A stretch of DNA of 64,000 nucleotides from Verrucomicrobiota bacterium (GCA_041181065.1 JBEGQI010000022.1:2863-66862), one strand, 5' to 3'. Positions 26,398-35,212 are shown, counted from the first letter of the stretch. Notes: generated by a model from the sequence alone, not told the origin. A program made the numbers and translations.

Positions 26398-29229
26398 TCA
26401 CTCAGTGGCCCCACTGGGTTGATTCTTTACAACTTTAAACTTCCGCATCAGCACGATGAGCAGTGCGGGCAAAAACGTCAGGCCCGCGAACATGCATACC
26501 GCCGTGCCGATGGCCATCACGAGTCCAAGACTTTGGATGCCTTGATGCGCCGCCGGAATCAGACTGCCAAAACCGGCGATGGTGGTCAGGCCAGAAACCA
26601 ACACGGCTTTGCCCGTGCTCTTGGCCAAGATGCCGGGATTTTGTTCTTCTGCAAACCGGTTCAGGATGTGGATGCCGTTCGTCACGCCGATGCCGATGAC
26701 GAGCGGCAACGTCATAATGTTTGCAGGATTGAACGGGATGCCCGTCGCGCCCATCCAGCCGACCAGCCACAACGAGCCGATGCCCACTGGCAACAACGCC
26801 AGCACCACTGCCAGCGGACTGCGGAAATGCAGTAACACCATCAGGGAAATCGCCGCAAGCGAATACCAGGCTGCTTCTTCATAACTTTCCTTGAGCAACG
26901 TGGTGTATTGGTAGAGTTGGACTGGGGTGCCAGTGGCGTTGGGGTCCACCTTGCGCATATCCTCGATGAACACGCGCTGATGTTCGCGGTCCCAGATGTC
27001 TGCCTTCGGATTCACCTGCAACATGATCATGCCGTGATGGCCGATGAAGCGGTCGCGTAGGAACGCCGGCAAATCCTCGGCGCGTAAACGGTCATCCGCA
27101 TCTTGTGTGCGCAACGCGTTGAATGTATCCCGGATGTCGCTGAACAAGGCTTGTTGATAGGCGGCGAGTTGCGACGCCTTGAACGACAGCGCCCGAGCAT
27201 CGCCCGCGAGCATTTCCTTGCGGAGCGAGTCGATCGCGGTGCGGAGGGACATCACGGTCTTTGCCAGCGCCGGGTCATTCGTTCGCACTTCGTCCAGCAC
27301 CGCGCCCATGTAGCCGTGCAACGAGTAAAGTGTGCGGCTCAACTCCGCGATGTTCACCGCATTGGTGTCCGGTGCGATGAAGTTAAGCGAGGCCACGTCG
27401 CCTTTGATCTCGCGGATGAGCGCGAGTTTTGTGGTCGGGTTCTGGCGCAGGAAACGCGTGATCGAATCCACGCTGGCGATGGAAGGCAGATTTGTCAGCG
27501 CGCCTTCCCAAGCGGCGGCTTGCTCCAGATTGGTCGCGACGATCTGGCCGAAGATGATGGATTTGTCCGAGCTGCGCAGTTTGTCCACGGTCTGGACGGC
27601 TGGCAGCCCGCGGCTTTGCATGTGGAGCAAGTTGTAATCGAAGAACACGCGGCTGGACAAAATCGCCGCCACCACACAGAGCGCTACCGAAACACCCATC
27701 GTGGTCCACGGCCGGTTCAACCACAATTGCTCGATGCGCGCGCGGTGATCGGTCTGATGAATCTGGTGGTCCAGCACGTTTTGCCGACCGCGCAGTAGCA
27801 ACGCCGGGAGCAGCGTCATCATCGGCACGAGGCAGATGAGCAGGCCGCCACCGCAGATGACGCCCATTTCCTGGATGCCTTTGAAGCCGGTGAACGACAT
27901 GGCAAGGAAGCCCGCCGCCGTTGTCATCGCGCCGGTGAAGATTCCTTTGCCGGTGAACACCATCGCCTTTTCCAGCGCCTGCGCCTCGGTCTTGCCGTGG
28001 CGCAACTCCTCTTCGTAACGCGTCACCAGATGCACGCCGAAGTCGATCGCCAGGCCCACCAGCATCGGCACGAACGTGATTGTCAGGATGTTCAAGTGGC
28101 CGATGGTTGCCGTTGCAAACGCCATCGTGTAGCCGAGACCGATGACGAGGCAGAACGTCGCCTTCAACGGCCGGCCGGTCTCGTGATAGCCGTAAATGAA
28201 AATCAGCGCGCAGATGATCAATGACACCACGCTCGCCACGGTCGTGTCCTTCTGCGATTGCAGCATCTCATCGAGTTCCAACACCGGCTCACCCGTGAAA
28301 CCTACATTCACGCCCGGAACTTCCGCGCGGGTTTCCTCGATCAACGACCGCATCCGTTCGACGGCATCGCCGTTCAACTCGTCGGTCAGCGCGTGCGCAT
28401 TCACCACGAACAAACCGTTCCTGCCGAAGGTCAGGTAAATCGCCTGATCGGCTTCCGGCCCGGCATTGAACAAAGCGTTCAACCCCGGCGACGGCGCCCG
28501 GCCCGGACGTTGCAATGAAGCCGTCGCTTGCGACACGATCCGCTCCAGGGCGGGCAAGGCGCCGACGAGCGAGCGGTTCTCGGCATTATCCTCGCGGCTC
28601 GCGGTCCGAATCTGGGTGTTCACCAGTTCGAACAGCCGCACGAGATTCGTCGCCTGCGTGAACTGATGGATGAACGGCCGATACTCGCCGAGCGTTTTCT
28701 TCAGCTCGCGCAAATCGCCTTCCTCGGCGAACAGCAAAGCCTTTGAACCCATCTTCGGCAGGTCGCCCTTGTAGAACACATTGACGAATAGGTTCGTTTC
28801 GAGGGTCTCCGTGCGCTGCGAATCCGAGTGAATGGCATCGCGGAACCAGCCCAAGATCCGGCTGCCGCCCACCAGTTGGTTGGTCTCCGGATGCGCGGGG
28901 ATGCGAATCGTCGCGGCCTCGAGCTTCGCCCCCAACCGTTCGACGAATTGACGGCTCTTCTCCGCATCGTCGCTCTCGATCACAGCCACGAGATCGTCCT
29001 GCTGTGTGAACTCCTCGCGCAGCTTCAGGAAGTTCTCATGATACTTCTGGTTCCCGCCGACGAGGTCGTTGCGGTTCGTGCTGAACTGCAACCGATCAAT
29101 CGTGAAGAAGACGCAGACGAAGAACAGCAGCAGTTGCGGCCAGATGAACAGGCGCGGGCGCGCGCAAACTGCCGCCGCGAGTTTCGCGAGCAGCCGGCCG
29201 AAGAAAGTTTCGCCTGAGAGCGCCTGCAC
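26398..29229 (-). CDS. MMPL/RND-superfamily transporter (HpnN-like lipid exporter architecture)
   Basis: 943 aa with two 6-TM bundles, each preceded by a large loop. MMPL-like blocks are present (GVNVGFTGEPVLELDE...; LPLVIGIGVTNGIHILNRF). Lipid substrate is an inference. Confidence 0.8.
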   Translation of the reverse strand: MQALSGETFFGRLLAKLAAAVCARPRLFIWPQLLLFFVCVFFTIDRLQFSTNRNDLVGGNQKYHENFLKLREEFTQQDDLVAVIESDDAEKSRQFVERLGAKLEAATIRIPAHPETNQLVGGSRILGWFRDAIHSDSQRTETLETNLFVNVFYKGDLPKMGSKALLFAEEGDLRELKKTLGEYRPFIHQFTQATNLVRLFELVNTQIRTASREDNAENRSLVGALPALERIVSQATASLQRPGRAPSPGLNALFNAGPEADQAIYLTFGRNGLFVVNAHALTDELNGDAVERMRSLIEETRAEVPGVNVGFTGEPVLELDEMLQSQKDTTVASVVSLIICALIFIYGYHETGRPLKATFCLVIGLGYTMAFATATIGHLNILTITFVPMLVGLAIDFGVHLVTRYEEELRHGKTEAQALEKAMVFTGKGIFTGAMTTAAGFLAMSFTGFKGIQEMGVICGGGLLICLVPMMTLLPALLLRGRQNVLDHQIHQTDHRARIEQLWLNRPWTTMGVSVALCVVAAILSSRVFFDYNLLHMQSRGLPAVQTVDKLRSSDKSIIFGQIVATNLEQAAAWEGALTNLPSIASVDSITRFLRQNPTTKLALIREIKGDVASLNFIAPDTNAVNIAELSRTLYSLHGYMGAVLDEVRTNDPALAKTVMSLRTAIDSLRKEMLAGDARALSFKASQLAAYQQALFSDIRDTFNALRTQDADDRLRAEDLPAFLRDRFIGHHGMIMLQVNPKADIWDREHQRVFIEDMRKVDPNATGTPVQLYQYTTLLKESYEEAAWYSLAAISLMVLLHFRSPLAVVLALLPVGIGSLWLVGWMGATGIPFNPANIMTLPLVIGIGVTNGIHILNRFAEEQNPGILAKSTGKAVLVSGLTTIAGFGSLIPAAHQGIQSLGLVMAIGTAVCMFAGLTFLPALLIVLMRKFKVVKNQPSGATE

Positions 29230-29238
29230 TGTGTCGGG

Positions 29239-29577
29239 TTATTTGACGGGTTCCACGAACACGGCCGTGCCGTAGCACAACACTTCCGTGATGCCCGGCC
29301 CGATCTCGGTCGCGTCGTAGCGCACGCCGATGACGGCGTTCGCGCCGAGCTGACCGGCGTGGGCGAGCATTTGATTGAAGGTGTCCTCGCGCGCCCGTTC
29401 GCAGAGCGAGGTATAGAGCGTGATGTTTCCGCCGAACACGGCTTGAAGATTGGCGCCGATGTTGCCGATGACGGACCGCGAACGCACGATGATGCCGCGC
29501 ACGACGCCGAAATTGCGCGTCACGCGATAGCCGGGCAGCTCGAAGGCGGTGGTGGTCAGCGGATGGGTCTGGCTCAT
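29239..29577 (-). CDS. ybjQ: YbjQ/UPF0145 family protein
   Basis: 112 aa. GYRV....G.V.G..VRSR......GA.L....GG.....T.L....R..A...M...A...GANAV.G.R.D are family hallmarks. It lies 9 bp upstream of the MMPL gene. Confidence 0.85.
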
Positions 29578-29722: not shown

Positions 29723-30784
29723 CTACGCCTTCTGCGGCATGATGCGGTCGGGATGCCGCGCGCGGCTCACCGCGGTGTCGTAGGTGATGAGACACTTGCA
29801 GTAGAGGTCGTAGAGGCAATTGTCCATGAGCACCATGCCGTCCTTGCGGCCCATCTGCAGCGTGTTCTCCAACTGATGCAGCTGATTTTCGCGGATGAGA
29901 TTTCGCACAGCACCATTCGCCACGAGCATCTCGTAGGCAAGCACACGCCGCGTCCGGTCCGCGGCTGGCAACAACTCTTGCGAGATGATTCCCTGCAACG
30001 CATTCGCGAGCTGCAAGATGATTTGCCGCTGCGCGCTGCCCTCGAACACGCCGATGATGCGCTCCAGCGCGAGCGAAACATTGGGCGAATGCATCGTGGC
30101 CAGAACAAGATGACCCGTTTCAGCGGCGGTGAGCGCGGTGGAAATCGCTTCGTAATCGCGCATCTCGCCCACGACGATGACGTCCGGGTCCTGCCGCAGA
30201 ACGTGGATGAGCGCGCGGTTGAATGAGCGCACATCGGTCAACACCTCCTGTTGCACCACGATGGCGCGCTTGTTCTCGTGCACGAATTCAATCGGGTCCT
30301 CGATGGTTACGATCTTGCAGCGGCGCTCGGTGTTGATGAGGTCCACGAGGTAATTCAGCGTGGTCGTCTTGCCCGCGCCGGTGGGGCCAGTGATGAGCAC
30401 GAGGCCGTTCGGCTTGCGCGCGAGTTCGTCGATGCGCTCAGGCAAACCTAACTCTTCGCGCGACGCGATGCGGTCGCCGCAAAAGCGGAAGCTCAACTCG
30501 GGATGGCCATTGCGCCGATAGACCGTGACCCGCACGCGTCCGGCGACGCTATGCAGCAGGGAGATGCACAACTCCCACTCCGCCTCGAATTTTTTCCGCT
30601 GTTGTTCGTTGAGCAGGCAATTCGTGATCTCGATGACTTCAGCCTCTGAAAGCGCGTCCTCATCCGCGAGGATGATCTCGCCGTTCACGCGATACGCCGG
30701 AGGCACGCCTGCGACGAGGTGCAGGTCCGACGCGTCGAAGTCGGCGGCAGCGGCGAGGAAGCAATCGAGTTTGTCTGAGTTCAT
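29723..30784 (-). CDS. pilT: PilT-family (type IV pilus retraction-type) hexameric ATPase
   Basis: ASDLHL..G.PP..R..G, Walker A GPTGAGKTTT, TIEDPIEF, Asp/His boxes (GEMRD, TGHLVLATMH). The ATG at 30784 overlaps the upstream TPR gene stop (ATGA at 30781-30784). Confidence 0.85.
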   Translation of the reverse strand: MNSDKLDCFLAAAADFDASDLHLVAGVPPAYRVNGEIILADEDALSEAEVIEITNCLLNEQQRKKFEAEWELCISLLHSVAGRVRVTVYRRNGHPELSFRFCGDRIASREELGLPERIDELARKPNGLVLITGPTGAGKTTTLNYLVDLINTERRCKIVTIEDPIEFVHENKRAIVVQQEVLTDVRSFNRALIHVLRQDPDVIVVGEMRDYEAISTALTAAETGHLVLATMHSPNVSLALERIIGVFEGSAQRQIILQLANALQGIISQELLPAADRTRRVLAYEMLVANGAVRNLIRENQLHQLENTLQMGRKDGMVLMDNCLYDLYCKCLITYDTAVSRARHPDRIMPQKA

Positions 30785-31560
30785 CGTTGAAGGAGTTGGC
30801 GGATTGAGCCGCGCAGTCGCGACCACCAGCTGATGCGACCAACGGAAACCAAAGCCGCGTGCACGTCATCGGAACGCGGATTCAATTCCTTCGCGCGCTT
30901 GAAAGAAGTGGTCGCTGGGCCCGCGAGCCCGAGCGCTTGCTGACAACGGCCCAGCTCCAGCCAAAGCAGGAAATGCCCTGCGTTCCACTCCAGCGCCTGT
31001 TGCGCGAGCTTCATCGCGACGGCGAATTGCTCGTAGTAATAGCGCACGCGTGCCGCCAGCCACGCGATGACCCAATCGCCCGCCGCGAGCGACAGCGCTT
31101 TCTCGAAGCAGAAGTCCGCCCGCGTCTCGCGTCGCGCCAGCAACACATCGCCGCGCGCGAGCCAGATGTAGGGAGACTCGCCGCGCGCCTCGATGGCGGA
31201 GTCAGAAAAAGCGAGCGCGCCCTGAATGTCGCCGTCACGCGCGAGGGCGACGGCTTTGGCCGCGAGCAGTTCAGCCTCGTTGGGGAATTTCTCCAGCGCC
31301 TTGTCGGCCCACAGCTTGGCTTCGCGAAATTCGCCGAGCTCAATGAGCATACGCACCTGGCCAGTCCACGCGGCGGCGCTGCGCGGATTAAACTCGAGCA
31401 CCTTGGAAAAATAGCGGAGCGCGGACTCGAACTTCCCGTTCTCGAAAGCGGATTGAGCCTCGGCGAGAAAGTGCGCTTCGTCCGTGGTAGCCGCGTGCAG
31501 CGGTTCGACCGCTCGATCCTCGGAACCGTCCCCCAGCTCAAGATTTCCGAAGCGGCTCAT
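30781..31560 (-). CDS. TPR-repeat protein
   Basis: 259 aa with several 34-aa TPR-like units (A..AFENGKFESALRYFSKVLEFNPRSAAAW; EFREAKLWADKALEKFPNEAEL...). Confidence 0.75.
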   Translation of the reverse strand: MSRFGNLELGDGSEDRAVEPLHAATTDEAHFLAEAQSAFENGKFESALRYFSKVLEFNPRSAAAWTGQVRMLIELGEFREAKLWADKALEKFPNEAELLAAKAVALARDGDIQGALAFSDSAIEARGESPYIWLARGDVLLARRETRADFCFEKALSLAAGDWVIAWLAARVRYYYEQFAVAMKLAQQALEWNAGHFLLWLELGRCQQALGLAGPATTSFKRAKELNPRSDDVHAALVSVGRISWWSRLRGSIRQLLQR

Positions 31561-31578
31561 GACAACGTGATAGCAAGC

Positions 31579-31917
31579 TCATCCGGGCGTAACCAACGAA
31601 TTCTTCGGCGGCAATGGCGCCTGCTGCCGCACCAGTTTCATCCGCGCCTTGCGCAGTTCGTCGGCGGACAACTCCCTGCGGGCGACCCGTTCCTTCGCGC
31701 GTGCGCGGGCGTGCATCCATTCACGCAGGAGCAGCAATGTGCCGAGCAGGATCAGTCCGGCAAGGCCGGGCAGCGCGTAATGAAGAAACACATCCTCCGG
31801 CATCCGCGCGAGGATGACCGCTGCAATCAGGAGTGTGGGCAACACGACAAGGAACAAGCCGGCATTGCGCCCGCGTCCTTGCAGATTCTCAAACAAGCCT
31901 GCCCAGAATGGACTCAT
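31579..31917 (-). CDS. Small two-TM membrane protein with a basic coiled C-terminal tail
   Basis: 112 aa. Helices GLFLVVLPTLLIAAVILA and LPGLAGLILLGTLLLL, then REWMHARARAKERVARRELSADELRKARMKL. It is tightly spaced between the AAA+ and TPR genes (16 and 18 bp gaps). Confidence 0.5.
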   Translation of the reverse strand: MSPFWAGLFENLQGRGRNAGLFLVVLPTLLIAAVILARMPEDVFLHYALPGLAGLILLGTLLLLREWMHARARAKERVARRELSADELRKARMKLVRQQAPLPPKNSLVTPG

Positions 31918-31933
31918 AACAACTCAAAGGGGT

Positions 31934-33448
31934 TCATCGCGGCGCGTTCGCGTTGCGCGCACGACCATCCGCCCACGCGCGAAGCTGGCTGATTTGCTCG
32001 GCCATCGTCTTTGCGAGCGGCACGGTTTGCGCGATGGCGGCCTGCACGTGCACGGTCGTCAAATCGGTGCGGGCATGGAAAGCATCGTAGAGCGCGCTGT
32101 TGATGGCTTCCTCAATTTCCGCGCCGCTGAAATGATTTGTGGCATCCGCCAGCGCGCCCAGATCGAAGCCCGCCGCAACGCGACTTCGCTTGGTCAGATG
32201 GATGCGGAAAATGTCCTGACGCTCTTCACGGCTCGGCAGGTCCACGAAGAAGATTTCGTCGAGGCGACCTTTGCGCAGCAATTCCGGCGGCAGGTTGGAA
32301 ATGTCGTTCGCCGTCGCGACGACGAACACCGGCGCGGTCTTTTCCGAAAGCCACGTCAGGAAGGTGCCGAACACGCGCGCGGTGGTGCCACCGTCCGAAA
32401 TGCCGGAGCCTTGCGAACCGGCGAAGGCTTTGTCGATTTCGTCCACCCAGAGGATCGCGGGCGCGACGGACTCGGCCACGGAGATGGCATGGCGGACATT
32501 TTCCTCCGACGAGCCGATGAAGCTGCCGAACATGCGGCCCATGTCGAAGCGCAGCAACGGGAGTTGCCAGAGATTTGAAACCGCTTTCGCGCACAGGCTC
32601 TTGCCGCAACCTTGCACGCCGAGCAGCAACACGCCTTTGGGCGCAGGCAAGCCGAACGCCCGTGCCTCGTCCGTGAACGCTGCAGCGCGTTTGTTCAGCC
32701 AGTCTTTCAGCACGGCCATGCCGCCGACGTGGCTGAAGCTTTCATCCGTGGCGTAATATTCAAGCAGGCCACTCTTGCGAATGATTTGTTGCTTCTCGGC
32801 AAAAACGTCGGCCACGGCATCCACGCTCAGGCGCTCATCCTTCACGATGATCTTGGCAAAGACGTTCTCCGCCTCGCCGAGAGTCAGGCCGAGCGCGGCT
32901 TGCAACACGCGTTCGCGGCCCGCATCATCGAGGTCGATCTTCACCTGCTTGTGCGGCTTCACCTCGGCGATGATGTGGTCGAGCAACGCGGATAAATCTT
33001 CGCGCGACGGCAGCGGGTGATTCAGCACCGTGATTTCCTTTTCCAGCTCGGTTGGAATCTCGAGCGTCGGCGCGATGATGATGATGGTCTTGTGGCTGTT
33101 CTTCAGGTGCAACGCGATGTCCTTCAACTTGCGCGTCACGGCGAATTGGCTCTTCGTCAGGAACGGATGAAGGTCCTTGAAGACAAATACCGCGGGCTCG
33201 ACTTGCTCGATGACAAGGTCCAGTGCGGCGAGCGGATCCTTCGTGGCGGGGTTGCGGCTTTTCTGCGACTGGATGGACGTTCCCGCCGGCACGATGCCGG
33301 TGCTGCACGTCCATTCGAAGACGCGCTTCTGCCGCTTCTTCGCGATCTCGACGATGAGTTCCTGCACGCGCAGCTCCTCGCTCGAAAGCACGTAGAGGAT
33401 AGGATACCGTGCGCGGATCAGCGTCTCGATTTCGGTGGCGAAGGTCAT
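31934..33448 (-). CDS. Ycf46-like AAA+ ATPase
   Basis: 504 aa. N-terminal [22 protein letters not shown]...FEWTCSTG is typical of Ycf46-type proteins. C-terminal classical AAA module: Walker A GVQGCGKS, Walker [10 protein letters not shown], second region of homology [21 protein letters not shown]. Confidence 0.8.
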
Positions 33449-33464
33449 GTGAGTGCGTTTCGGT

Positions 33465-33680
33465 TCAGCTGATCAACCGTTTCCACCACGGCTTGCCGGG
33501 CTTCGGCAGTTTGGAAATGGATTCGCTGAGGCGCTGTTCAACTGTCGCAGGCACGACCGTCTGACGGATGTCTTCGCGCAACGCTTCCTCTGCCGAGTTG
33601 AATTCGCGGGCCGAGGTTTGCTGCGCCTGCGTGTGGGAAAGCAGTTCGCGTTCGCGGGATGTTTGCTTGTGCTGTTTCAT
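33465..33680 (-). CDS. Small hydrophilic protein of unknown function (first gene of the AAA+/PilT operon)
   Basis: The ATG at 33680 (the track ORF starts on TTG at 33692) gives 71 aa: MKQHKQTSRERELLSHTQAQQTSAREFNSAEEALREDIRQTVVPATVEQRLSESISKLPKPGKPWWKRLIS. It ends 16 bp before the AAA+ start. Coding status is unproven. Confidence 0.4.
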   Translation of the reverse strand: MKQHKQTSRERELLSHTQAQQTSAREFNSAEEALREDIRQTVVPATVEQRLSESISKLPKPGKPWWKRLIS

Positions 33681-33698
33681 GCGGGGCCTCAATCAGGG

Positions 33699-33871
33699 AA
33701 AATGAACAACCACGGATGGACACAGATAGACACGGATAGAAGCAAGGGACCGCCGCCACAATCCTGCCCCTTTGATACGCCGGGTATAAGAGCCAAGCGC
33801 GATCGAAGAGAACCGAAGTCCACGTTCTGGTCGCATCCGTGTCTATCTGTGTTCATCCGTGGTTTCATTTC
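33699..33871. repeat. MITE-like palindromic element (about 38-bp terminal inverted repeats, about 95-bp core)
   Basis: The left arm aaatgaacaaccacggatggacacagatagacacggata (33700-33738) is nearly the reverse complement of catccgtgtctatctgtgttcatccgtggtttcattt (33834-33870). The element sits exactly between the ECF sigma stop (33873-33875) and the next gene. Confidence 0.55.
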
Positions 33872-33872
33872 T

Positions 33873-34433
33873 TCAGGCGGTCTTTTCAAACTGGGCGGCA
33901 AAAGCTTTTCGGGCGCGGTGCAACTTACCACGCACAGCGTCAGCTGTCTGGCTCGTAAGTTCAGCAATCTCCTCGTAGCTCATCTCTTCGTCCGCGACGA
34001 GCAGGAGCAGCAGGCGGTATTCGGGAGTCAACCGGTCCATCGTCTTCGCGATGCGCTCGCCCAGCTCCTTCACTTCGAGGATGCGCAACGGCGAATCACT
34101 GGTGGCGGGCGTGGCGTCGAGGAGGGTTTCATCCGCGCCGGTGACGATGTGGCGGTTGTGCCAGCTTGCCTGAAGGTTGTGGCAATGGTTGATCGTGATT
34201 CGGTAGAGCCACGTGCGAAAGGCGGCCTCGCCGCGGAACTCATCGAGCTTGCGATAGACCTTGAGAAAAACGTCGTGGGTCACGTCCTCGGCGCGTTGCG
34301 GGTCGCCGAGGTAGCGGAGCGCGAGGTAATAGACCGCCTTGTTGTGTTCACGATAAAGGTCGGCGAACCCGGACGGTTCCAGTCCGGGCGGCGCCGTAGG
34401 TTCGACACCAGGTTCGTTCACGAGGGGCTCCAC
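33873..34433 (-). CDS. ECF-type sigma-70 family RNA polymerase sigma factor
   Basis: Region 2 (AEDVTHDVFLKVYRKLDEFRGEAAFRTWLYRITINHCHN) and region 4 (LTPEYRLLLLLVADEEMSYEEIAELTSQTADAVRGKLHRARKAF). GTG start. Confidence 0.9.
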   Translation of the reverse strand: MEPLVNEPGVEPTAPPGLEPSGFADLYREHNKAVYYLALRYLGDPQRAEDVTHDVFLKVYRKLDEFRGEAAFRTWLYRITINHCHNLQASWHNRHIVTGADETLLDATPATSDSPLRILEVKELGERIAKTMDRLTPEYRLLLLLVADEEMSYEEIAELTSQTADAVRGKLHRARKAFAAQFEKTA

Positions 34434-34501
34434 GGCTGATTAGACAGGAGCAGCCGAGGGTCGTCACGCAAAGAACAGCGGACGCAGTTTTGCCGGCTGG
34501 G

Positions 34502-35212
34502 TCAGTCTTCGTCGCCGTGAATGGTGATCACTTTGAGCAGCCCGAGCAGGACCACCAGCAGGATTAATCCGCTGGCGAGGGGAAGGATGCCCACGCCCAG
34601 AAACAACCACCGTAAGTTTGTGATCTCATGGGTCAGGTCGCGGCTGGATTCGAGCGACACGGTTTCAATCCGGTCTGTCAGCCGGTCACACGCTGTTTGA
34701 TAGGAGAGGAAACTGTGGAGAAGATCAACGGACCCGTCGTCATTGGCTGCGGTTGATTTGGGATCGGGCGTGCCTGCGGTGAACGCATCAGCTTGCTTGC
34801 GGCAGATGGCGCGCTTGTTGAGAACCTCTTCGAGACAGGCCCGCAAATCCGGGTCCTTCAAGGTGGATTTGAGCTGCGCGTAGAGCCGGTCGTTCGCGGC
34901 GCGTTCGTCGGCGATGGTGCGTGTTAGCTTCGCGCGCGCTGCAGGATCTTGCGTCTTCTGCAGTTCAATGATGTGGCCGTAGCTTGCAAATGCATGCAGG
35001 CCGACCTCCTGAAGCTCATTCAATGAAACCGTCGCTTCGGTCAAAACGCGGCTGTATCGGGCGTTGATGCTCGCCAAGCGCCACCAGCCAACCACACCCA
35101 GCGCCAGCAACATCGCTGTGATGATTGCGAGCGAATAGATTGCCAGCCTGCTCGCCCGCCGGGGGGCGGGTGCTACTGCGCGATTCGCAGCAAAGGATGA
35201 CGGAGTATTCAT
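34502..35212 (-). CDS. Membrane protein with an MCP-type four-helix-bundle (4HB_MCP-like) extracytoplasmic domain and no output domain
   Basis: TM1 (LAIYSLAIITAMLLALGVVGWW), then about 150 aa that are helical by composition (RLASINARYSRVLTEATVSLNELQEV...), then TM2 (WLFLGVGILPLASGLILLVVLLGLL), then 9 residues. It lies directly upstream of the ECF sigma gene. Confidence 0.55.
   Translation of the reverse strand: MNTPSSFAANRAVAPAPRRASRLAIYSLAIITAMLLALGVVGWWRLASINARYSRVLTEATVSLNELQEVGLHAFASYGHIIELQKTQDPAARAKLTRTIADERAANDRLYAQLKSTLKDPDLRACLEEVLNKRAICRKQADAFTAGTPDPKSTAANDDGSVDLLHSFLSYQTACDRLTDRIETVSLESSRDLTHEITNLRWLFLGVGILPLASGLILLVVLLGLLKVITIHGDED

Follow-up and report, generated by a model that had tools for sequence, protein, structure and literature searches.

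What brings a Ycf46-type AAA+ ATPase and a PilT-family ATPase together behind one sigma factor? The question is raised by a 64,000-nucleotide stretch of a Verrucomicrobiota genome (GCA_041181065.1, contig JBEGQI010000022.1, nucleotides 2863–66862; hereafter the window, with positions counted from its first letter), in which both ATPases are encoded on the minus strand between positions 29,723 and 35,212, together with an extracytoplasmic function (ECF) sigma factor, a tetratricopeptide repeat (TPR) protein and two very small proteins. Comparison with related loci indicates that the window cluster is a reduced form of a chromosomal cluster conserved across Verrucomicrobiota. We read it as an ECF-sigma-controlled, membrane-proximal stress operon rather than one fixed machine, a proposition that we regard as evenly poised between right and wrong.

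A compact gene cluster conserved across Verrucomicrobiota

A six-frame list of open reading frames (ORFs) contained all seven minus-strand genes of the region. In the direction of transcription, these encode a protein with a 4HB_MCP-like domain (34502–35212), an ECF sigma factor of 186 aa (33873–34433), a 71-aa protein predicted to be soluble and all-helical (33465–33680), a Ycf46-type AAA+ ATPase of 504 aa (31934–33448), a 112-aa protein with two predicted transmembrane (TM) segments (31579–31917; hereafter the 2-TM protein), a cytoplasmic TPR protein of 259 aa (30781–31560) and a PilT-family hexameric ATPase of 353 aa (29723–30784). When recomputed, the intergenic gaps were 68 nt between the 4HB_MCP and sigma genes, 192 nt between sigma and the 71-aa gene, 16 nt on either side of the AAA+ gene, 18 nt between the 2-TM and TPR genes and −4 nt (an ATGA overlap) between TPR and PilT; a gene of the YbjQ family follows PilT after 145 nt. 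Public gene calls on the same contig agree with products of 71, 504, 112, 259 and 353 aa, and comparison with relatives backs the start codons of PilT (ATG, 30784), the 71-aa protein (ATG, 33680) and sigma (GTG, 34433). The compact, co-oriented block headed by an ECF sigma factor that had been predicted here was therefore borne out in its coordinates, its 16-, 16- and 18-nt gaps and its ATGA overlap.

To see how far this arrangement extends, we collected the best 80 species-representative genomes by AAA+ match, nearly all of them metagenome-assembled genomes of Verrucomicrobiota, with 10-kb flanks. The flanks of the 80 loci (numbered L001 and so on, like further loci below) were searched with the window proteins and all their ORFs were clustered. 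Sigma and the 71-aa protein were counted in loci with at least 3.2 kb readable upstream (n = 61), TPR and PilT in those with at least 7 kb readable downstream (n = 47). Sigma was present in 58 of the 61 loci and the 71-aa protein in 57; TPR and PilT were each found in 32 of the 47. A metagenome scan centred on the TPR protein, and thus independent of the AAA+-centred genome scan, placed PilT directly after TPR in 45 of 45 cases and AAA+ upstream in 23 of 25. Its recurrence in roughly 80 genomes at species level and in 80 metagenome contigs puts the arrangement far beyond chance. Synteny in relatives, on which the original prediction had staked its observation, was found: the gene order is kept and the observation stands. 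A search of the literature returned no description of this gene combination.

In its fullest form the cluster runs sigma, 71-aa protein, (rhomboid-like protein), radical S-adenosylmethionine (radical-SAM) protein, small ORF, AAA+, (2-TM protein), DUF1257, DUF2997, S26-like protein, TPR and PilT, where brackets mark optional genes; the majority of loci carry more genes than the window does. Among the 39 loci with both flanks readable, 18 have this long form and 8 the medium form seen in the window (AAA+, optional 2-TM, TPR and PilT); 6 have the radical-SAM module only, 4 consist of bare sigma, 71-aa protein and AAA+, and 3 show other architectures. DUF1257 is present in 23 and DUF2997 in 22 of 47 related loci; the window has neither, and so the neighbourhood link of the Ycf46 family is missing here. 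The block of TPR and PilT, with or without the S26-like gene, lies upstream of sigma in L061 and L064, and TPR–PilT occurs without the AAA+ cluster in L154 and L132. Only the trio of sigma, 71-aa protein and AAA+ is invariant, and it is kept in minimal loci with nothing else. Modules beyond this trio and the TPR–PilT pair are separable.

A conserved promoter at the sigma gene

The sigma factor scores 96.4 bits against TIGR02937 (cutoff 42.9) and contains regions 2 and 4 only (Sigma70_r2, Sigma70_r4_2), which places it among the ECF (group 4) sigma factors. Its closest solved relatives are AlgU, SigE, RpoE and SigW (E = 5e-20 to 4e-15). Enumeration of spaced dyads upstream of the sigma gene returned CGTGA-N17-TGTC in 52 of 68 loci; shuffled sequences gave at most 3. 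Alignment of 45 promoter instances yielded the consensus GCGTGACAT-N14-TTGTCTAATCAnCA(G/A)TG, the last triplet of which is the sigma start codon, and a promoter weight matrix placed sites at the sigma gene of 55 genome and 27 metagenome loci. Dyad search, alignment and weight matrix all support the promoter of the window (34431–34473, minus strand). It reads GCGTGAC-N16-TGTCTAAT, with the −35 element GCGTGAC at 34469–34463 and the −10 element TGTCTAAT at 34446–34439; 5 nt separate the −10 element from the GTG start codon (34433–34431). With a score of 29.9, this is the sole site scoring at least 10 in the 64 kb, and no internal ECF-type promoter was found within the window cluster, where the best score was 4.4.

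This pattern implies that the sigma gene is self-regulated from its own ECF-type promoter. The fixed distance of 5 nt between −10 element and start codon points to a leaderless or nearly leaderless mRNA, and the sigma transcript is probably leaderless. In other loci, the weight matrix found variants of the promoter before DUF1257 and before a TPR membrane protein, f39; a variant also lies upstream of TPR in at least two medium-form loci (L067 and L137). As the same motif precedes DUF1257 and f39 in other loci, cluster genes would belong to the regulon of this sigma factor. A scan for consensus sigma-70 promoters was uninformative, with 0 found and terminator-like sites at chance level.

The variant before DUF1257 (CGCGTGACGAATTG...GCCCGGTCTAAAC, about 22 nt ahead of the gene in L111, L124–L127, L079, L080, L028 and others) lies in the 3' end of the 2-TM gene or in the spacer before DUF1257. 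In at least some loci it overlaps the codons for the C-terminal 2-TM peptide S-R-D-E-L-R-x-A-R-S-K-L, and the peptide and the overlapping promoter may constrain each other. The corresponding window peptide, S-A-D-E-L-R-K-A-R-M-K-L, has no match to the promoter.

The 4HB_MCP-like protein directly upstream (Pfam 4HB_MCP_1, E = 3.9e-11) had been suggested as an anti-sigma or sensor partner. This suggestion did not survive the comparison: about 165 related loci contain no homologue, and the sigma promoter lies between the 4HB_MCP and sigma genes. Since homologues are absent from related loci and the gene sits upstream of the sigma promoter, we place it outside the system and rejected it as a component, there being no conserved association with the sigma/AAA+ cluster. 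As delimited from the sequence, the system extends from the sigma promoter through PilT.

A 71-residue partner of the sigma factor

The 71-aa protein (33465–33680) is an invariant downstream partner of the sigma factor. Its gene lies directly after sigma in 57 of the 61 loci, as against 58 that have sigma, and the spacer measures only 6–8 nt in two relatives with gene calls. The original prediction had described it as a tiny hydrophilic protein; gene and coordinates were correct, whereas its invariant status as sigma partner had been missed. The conserved core reads EF-x-S-x-EE-x-LR-x-D...VPP...RL, followed by a Trp/Arg-rich C-terminus, PWWKRLI. AlphaFold2 modelled helices at residues 3–40, 45–56 and 65–70 without a globular core (pLDDT, the predicted local distance difference test score, 77; pTM, the predicted template-modelling score, 0.33), and no TM segment was predicted. 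Neither this protein nor the 112-aa protein matched a Pfam (E up to 10), NCBIfam or PADLOC family, and a homologue search with the 71-aa protein returned only 15 close relatives. Because of its position and its co-occurrence with sigma, and despite the lack of a known anti-sigma domain, the protein is a candidate anti-sigma factor or adaptor, and no other conserved candidate for the partner of sigma was found.

Trp/Arg-rich ends are common to the 71-aa protein of the window and its relatives, to related TPR proteins and to related pseudo-S26 proteins (PWWKRLI, GWWRRLF and RWFWRKQ). The tail of the window TPR protein, WWSRLRGSIRQLLQR, is a weaker version. Such tails could be amphipathic anchors at the membrane surface.

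A p97-like AAA+ ATPase of the Ycf46 family

The AAA+ domain of the 504-aa protein (31934–33448; PF00004, E = 5e-28) has Walker A GVQGCGKS (residues 277–284), pore loop FIG (310–312), Walker B ILWVDE (332–337), ATAN with sensor-1 residue N381 (378–381) and RKGRLD with the arginine fingers R392 and R395 (392–397). The catalytic residues are invariant in homologue alignments, as in classical-clade unfoldases of the p97 D2/FtsH/PAN type, and PDB sequence matches were to the D2 domain of p97/Cdc48 (E = 1e-54). In the AlphaFold2 model, residues 1–160 reached a pLDDT of 70–90 per 10-residue block at a moderate overall value of 66; the N-terminal ~245 residues were modelled as a beta-alpha-beta domain followed by a helical bundle. 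Foldseek aligned the whole chain to p97 D1D2 (E ~1e-19). Given this alignment, and because there is no Walker A in it, the N-terminal half is best read as a degenerate D1. The protein is thus predicted to be an unfoldase of the p97 kind, in which a degenerate D1-like domain precedes an active D2-like one with an intact pore loop. Identity to homologues is at least 80% in the best 120 protein clusters and 70–84% in the best 80 species-representative genomes; 70–90% identity across species, together with housekeeping flanks, fits a vertically inherited cellular function.

The N-terminal domain belongs to a much wider family. A search with it returned 4127 clusters at 50% identity, with many members of ~500–550 aa, from Armatimonadota, Elusimicrobiota, Omnitrophica, Nitrospinota, Spirochaetota, Bacillota, Actinomycetota, cyanobacteria and one Asgard archaeon. 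Homologues also lie on plasmids of Nostoc, Planktothrix, Pseudanabaena and Geminocystis. The 508-aa homologue on the Geminocystis plasmid is 44% identical over 502 aa, with DUF1257 and DUF2997 1–2 kb away. Some homologues are annotated 'SpoVK/Ycf46/Vps4 family', a generic label, and the annotations of ten distant cluster representatives are likewise generic. The Ycf46-like assignment of the original prediction was upheld by the combination of N-domain and one AAA domain, the length of ~500 aa and the 44% identity to the Geminocystis homologue near DUF1257 and DUF2997; the label is reasonable at family level, by way of this cyanobacterial homologue rather than slr0374 itself.

Cyanobacterial and plastid Ycf46 (slr0374 / Synpcc7942_0417) likewise has ~500 aa, with an N-domain of ~245 aa and one classical AAA domain. 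The function of Ycf46 had been called unsettled, in agreement with PMC7496141: slr0374 belongs to the compact three-gene operon slr0373-slr0374-slr0376, strongly induced by many stresses and of unknown function (PMC7496141; bioRxiv 10.1101/2025.07.21.665879). DUF1257 corresponds to Ycf35, and a DUF2997-ycf35-fed7 cluster is kept in cyanobacteria (PMC4284462). ycf35 and ycf46 are both missing from most freshwater red-algal plastid genomes and kept in most marine species (PMC5940233). In this respect the long-form Verrucomicrobiota loci and the Asgard and Omnitrophica loci resemble the Ycf46/Ycf35/DUF2997 grouping, as they put DUF1257 and DUF2997 beside AAA+. Unlike the Ycf46 operon, the cluster is headed by an ECF sigma factor and its 71-aa partner and not by RpoD-type or RpaB control; it has TPR–PilT attached, and the window copy is without DUF1257, DUF2997 and the radical-SAM module, which it either lost or never had.

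Among six AAA+ contexts sampled outside Verrucomicrobiota, three were solitary AAA+ genes and one had only unrelated neighbours. The Asgard locus (L086:6301-8533) has the order DUF1257, DUF2997, AAA+, and the Omnitrophica locus (L171:6001-8920) the order AAA+, zinc-ribbon protein, DUF1257, DUF2997. DUF1257, DUF2997 and AAA+ recur together in L086, L171 and the Geminocystis plasmid (L173:3168-6527); they are a candidate for an ancient functional unit linking Ycf35 and Ycf46.

In long-form AAA+ proteins (L001, L008–L015 and many others), the C-terminus is extended by 13 residues, with the final sequence R-[RK]-[ML]-E-[LFM]. The extension occurs almost only where a PflX-like radical-SAM gene (with the small ORF) precedes; the window lacks this radical-SAM gene, and its AAA+ lacks the C-terminal R-R-M-E-L/F tail of its long-form relatives. 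A homologue on a Treponema succinifaciens plasmid (L174:5085-6509) ends VRKLEM and has a '4Fe-4S cluster-binding' gene before it. This distribution suggests that the tail is a target or docking site of the radical-SAM enzyme.

Could the ATPase serve the sigma factor itself? For RpoE, AlgU and SigW, proteolytic removal of the anti-sigma factor finishes with an AAA+ protease. By analogy with ClpXP acting on RseA or RsiW, the AAA+ would strip or unfold a 71-aa anti-sigma factor via PWWKRLI, so that the trio would form a self-contained switch and the other genes its output. The invariance of the trio (57–58 of 61 loci), the similarity of the sigma factor to RpoE, AlgU and SigW, the intact pore loop of the AAA+ and the helical 71-aa model without a globular core, typical of proteins that fold on a partner, are all in keeping with such a switch. 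As in the RpoE/AlgU/SigW modules, a self-regulated ECF promoter, a sigma factor and a small downstream partner stand together, with an AAA+ unfoldase linked to them. However, the partner here is soluble, has 71 aa and is without anti-sigma domain, zinc motif or TM helix; and, unlike in the arrangement with ClpXP, the operon itself encodes the AAA+, which is of the p97 and not the ClpX type and lacks an accompanying peptidase gene, and the mRNA is apparently leaderless. Moreover, the AAA+ family is sigma-free in cyanobacteria, Asgard archaea, Omnitrophica and Armatimonadota. On balance, we consider a dedicated sigma regulator unlikely.

A predicted membrane hairpin and the accessory genes of fuller forms

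The 2-TM protein (31579–31917) has two hydrophobic windows, starting at about residues 16 and 48. It has 33 distinct homologues, typically encoded immediately after the AAA+ gene, and is 38% identical to a 104-aa protein of L001. Both ends are conserved: the N-terminus reads MSPFW..L.GRGRN and the C-terminal motif LS-x-DEL-x-x-AR-x-KL. As basic residues flank the hairpin, both termini are suggested to be cytoplasmic; if so, the protein probably serves the AAA+ as membrane anchor or partner. As an accessory it is variable, being detected in only some loci and missing from most of those with the medium form.

Fuller forms of the cluster add further membrane proteins. A rhomboid-family protein (L048:8252-8974 and 16 other loci) is missing its catalytic Ser and His and has a conserved SERIARLEL C-terminus; in a multi-TM protein of the S26 fold (L001:10588-11460 and 34 other loci), the Ser and Lys needed for catalysis are absent. 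A p97-like ATPase with a pair of dead membrane proteases beside it recalls Derlin with p97. Another protein, f39 (L024:7740, L042:5802, L047:5536, L093:224, L094:3882, L106:4026 and L154:9855), is a membrane TPR/YfiO-like protein of ~370–420 aa that flanks the cluster on either side in 16 of 80 loci and is not found in the window. It is often preceded by the same ECF promoter, ending in the f39 start codon, and is probably a further leaderless member of the regulon.

PilT is paired with a dedicated TPR protein

The TPR protein (30781–31560) matches several TPR Pfam families, has an invariant N-terminal MSRF-x-NLE and lacks a signal peptide or TM segment; its alignment shows 70% mean column identity. 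PilT (29723–30784) scores 376.8 bits against TIGR01420 (cutoff 319.1), which assigns it to the PilT/PilU family, and matches Geobacter PilT4 (6ojx) with E = 9e-89 over residues 15–348. It has the full motif set, with Walker A GPTGAGKTT (133–141), Asp box EDPIE (162–166), Walker B DPDVIVVGEMRD (199–210), His box TGHLVLATMH (223–232) and AVRNLIRE (292–299), and is 68–89% identical to its counterparts in related loci. The 4-nt ATGA overlap is present in 84 of 93 TPR–PilT pairs. Gene order and overlap together mark TPR–PilT as an obligate, translationally coupled pair.

Compared with type IVa PilT proteins (Geobacter metallireducens PilT4, 6ojx; P. aeruginosa, 3jvu), the similarity is full length and includes all motifs, with AVRNLIRE as an AIRNLIRE-type sequence. 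The genetic context differs. The cluster PilT is not encoded with pilB, pilC and pilM–Q; it is always preceded by the dedicated TPR protein, with the 4-nt overlap, usually within the sigma/AAA+ cluster; and in some relatives genes of the type II secretion system (T2SS) type (gspF, pseudopilins, gspK) come after it instead of pilus genes. The 36 other ORFs of the window matched 55 Pfam families, and the 25 most frequent of these included no type IV pilus or T2SS family.

In related loci, T2SS-type sets of gspF, three pseudopilins and gspK occur, for example, in L117:11350-15308, L154:12804-16201 and L048:17365-19596, with no gspE between PilT and the set. L154 keeps the order TPR–PilT–f39–LarE-like–gspF without the AAA+ cluster. 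A PilT gene adjoining T2SS genes is unusual in itself.

The pair could then simply be the retraction module of the cell's pilus or pseudopilus, with TPR as regulator of PilT, no functional tie to the AAA+ and their adjacency as inherited gene order. The sequence and motifs of PilT are canonical, 7 genome and 13 metagenome loci have gspF, pseudopilin and gspK genes 1–3 kb downstream of it, and L154 joins TPR–PilT through f39 to gspF, as such a module would lead one to expect. Yet adjacency to AAA+ (23 of 25 and 32 of 47 loci) is more widespread than adjacency to gspF and survives rearrangement in L061 and L064, the sigma-type promoter variant stands upstream of TPR in L067 and L137, and the genes after PilT in the window and in its closest relative encode YbjQ and MMPL proteins, not secretion components. 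We therefore doubt that retraction by itself explains the pair.

An inverted repeat between sigma and the 71-aa gene

In the window, the spacer between sigma and the 71-aa gene measures 192 nt, compared with 6–8 nt in L002 and L001, the relatives with gene calls. It contains a 28-bp inverted repeat (33711–33861) with arms at 33711–33738 and 33834–33861, which differ by 2 mismatches and lie ~95 nt apart; 0 such pairs are expected by chance. The minus-strand RNA of 33681–33880 folds at −93.4 kcal/mol (z = −7.5). The repeat is absent from all other loci and has no Rfam match. It is a genome-specific insertion whose RNA is predicted to form a very stable hairpin, and it could act as an attenuator or represent an element like a miniature inverted-repeat transposable element or a repetitive extragenic palindrome.

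A proposed shared regulation rather than a single machine

Together, these data fit a model in which shared regulation and location tie the two ATPases together, without direct contact being required; this is our best reading of the locus. In the proposed stress operon, the 71-aa protein would hold sigma inactive, possibly at the membrane via its Trp/Arg-rich tail, until an envelope or membrane signal frees it. Freed sigma would then transcribe sigma through PilT as one unit; no other sigma-type promoter lies in the window. The AAA+ hexamer, docked on the 2-TM hairpin, would unfold or extract proteins at the inner face of the membrane and may also act on the 71-aa protein. In parallel, the TPR protein would recruit or regulate PilT, acting on a pilus or pseudopilus platform encoded elsewhere.

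Several observations weigh against this model. The 71-aa protein has neither an anti-sigma domain nor an H-x3-C-x2-C zinc motif (it contains no Cys and one His), and a Foldseek search of its model against the PDB, as the original prediction had suggested, gave 0 matches; the missing motif lowers the claim of a known type of anti-sigma factor, not that of an anti-sigma-like action. No protease partner was identified for the AAA+. TPR–PilT is missing near AAA+ in 15 of 47 loci, and 2 of 25 TPR–PilT loci are without AAA+. In the window itself, the hairpin separating sigma from the 71-aa gene could act as a terminator or attenuator and so uncouple sigma from the downstream genes. Finally, none of the six contexts sampled outside Verrucomicrobiota joins the AAA+ to sigma, TPR or PilT, and because the family occurs elsewhere without these genes, what it acts on may have nothing to do with sigma or pili.

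The original prediction had gone further and considered a pair of motors coupled by way of a TPR adaptor and a small membrane anchor, that is, one integrated machine in which AAA+ and PilT hexamers are joined via the 2-TM and TPR proteins at the membrane and handle the same substrate. Conserved order and orientation, the tight spacing in the window and the linkage of AAA+ to TPR–PilT in 23 of 25 TPR-centred loci are what such a machine would predict, as is the relocated S26–TPR–PilT block that still lies beside the cluster in L061 and L064. However, the adjacency of 2-TM and TPR turned out to be peculiar to the reduced form: the majority form has DUF1257, DUF2997 and pseudo-S26 genes between them, and most medium-form loci have no 2-TM gene at all. 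Moreover, PilT is absent beside AAA+ in 15 of 47 loci and in all other phyla sampled, and TPR–PilT occurs without the AAA+ cluster in L154 and L132. Because the modules are separable, a single, physically coupled two-motor machine is not supported, and we judge it quite improbable.

A more specific version of the AAA+ step borrows from endoplasmic-reticulum-associated degradation (ERAD). By analogy, a p97-like AAA+ working on small membrane partners would dislocate inner-membrane proteins under envelope stress signalled through the ECF sigma factor. These partners would be the 2-TM hairpin in the window and, in fuller forms, an inactive, Derlin-like rhomboid and an inactive signal peptidase; substrates could be pilin-like proteins with N-terminal hydrophobic helices that PilT retraction returns to the membrane. 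The predicted AAA+ fold on p97 D1D2 and the dead rhomboid and S26 proteins of long forms resemble the Cdc48/p97–Derlin system. Unlike that system, D1 is degenerate, no ubiquitin-system genes are present and the window lacks the pseudo-proteases. The likeness is an analogy only, and as an account of this locus the ERAD-like reading is a long shot.

An anti-phage defence system or mobile-element cargo is highly improbable, as the weak PADLOC/NCBIfam AAA-domain matches to IetA and IteA (E = 1e-20 and 3e-17, below cutoff) and the plasmid-borne N-domain homologues that would speak for it are set against matches that cover the generic AAA domain only (IteA at 62.8 bits versus a cutoff of 510), the absence of an IetS-like protease, 70–90% AAA+ identity across species, a housekeeping neighbourhood, the lack of a tRNA gene and a composition that is not atypical. 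On the same grounds (sub-cutoff ATPase score, absent protease gene, conservation and context), an identity as an IetAS/Ite defence system was rejected.

Genomic surroundings

The neighbours of the cluster in the window are housekeeping genes, encoding arginyl-tRNA synthetase, DnaN, Adk, DprA and MlaE, and the base composition of the region shows no anomaly. No tRNA gene was found in a scan of the whole 64-kb window and no Rfam match in the region; integrase and transposase families did not figure among the 25 most frequent Pfam families of the 55 found with window ORFs. Directly downstream of PilT (26398–29577), the YbjQ-family gene is followed 9 nt on by a gene for a 943-aa MMPL/RND-type transporter. 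This pair is kept only in the closest relative, L092, and was rejected as part of the operon.

Implications for Ycf46 and PilT

The gene families of the cluster are all known and an ECF-headed operon is ordinary; it is the conserved combination that is new. A Ycf46-type AAA+ is tied to an ECF sigma factor and a new 71-aa partner, and PilT is welded to a dedicated TPR protein; in fuller forms, a dead rhomboid, a dead S26 protein and a radical-SAM enzyme stand alongside. Ycf46 is conserved in cyanobacteria and red-lineage plastids and its gene is among the most strongly stress-induced of cyanobacteria, with a mechanism that is not known. The cluster gives it handles: a sigma factor with its promoter, a 71-aa partner and a membrane hairpin, and, in relatives, the dead proteases and a radical-SAM enzyme whose presence tracks the AAA+ tail. 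A canonical PilT always encoded with a dedicated TPR protein bears on the roles of PilT paralogues beyond classical pili. If the shared regulation is real, the cluster would represent a new regulon for envelope stress in a phylum where experimental genetics hardly exists, and if the ERAD-like reading were true, it would provide a first mechanism for the Ycf46/Ycf35/DUF2997 family.

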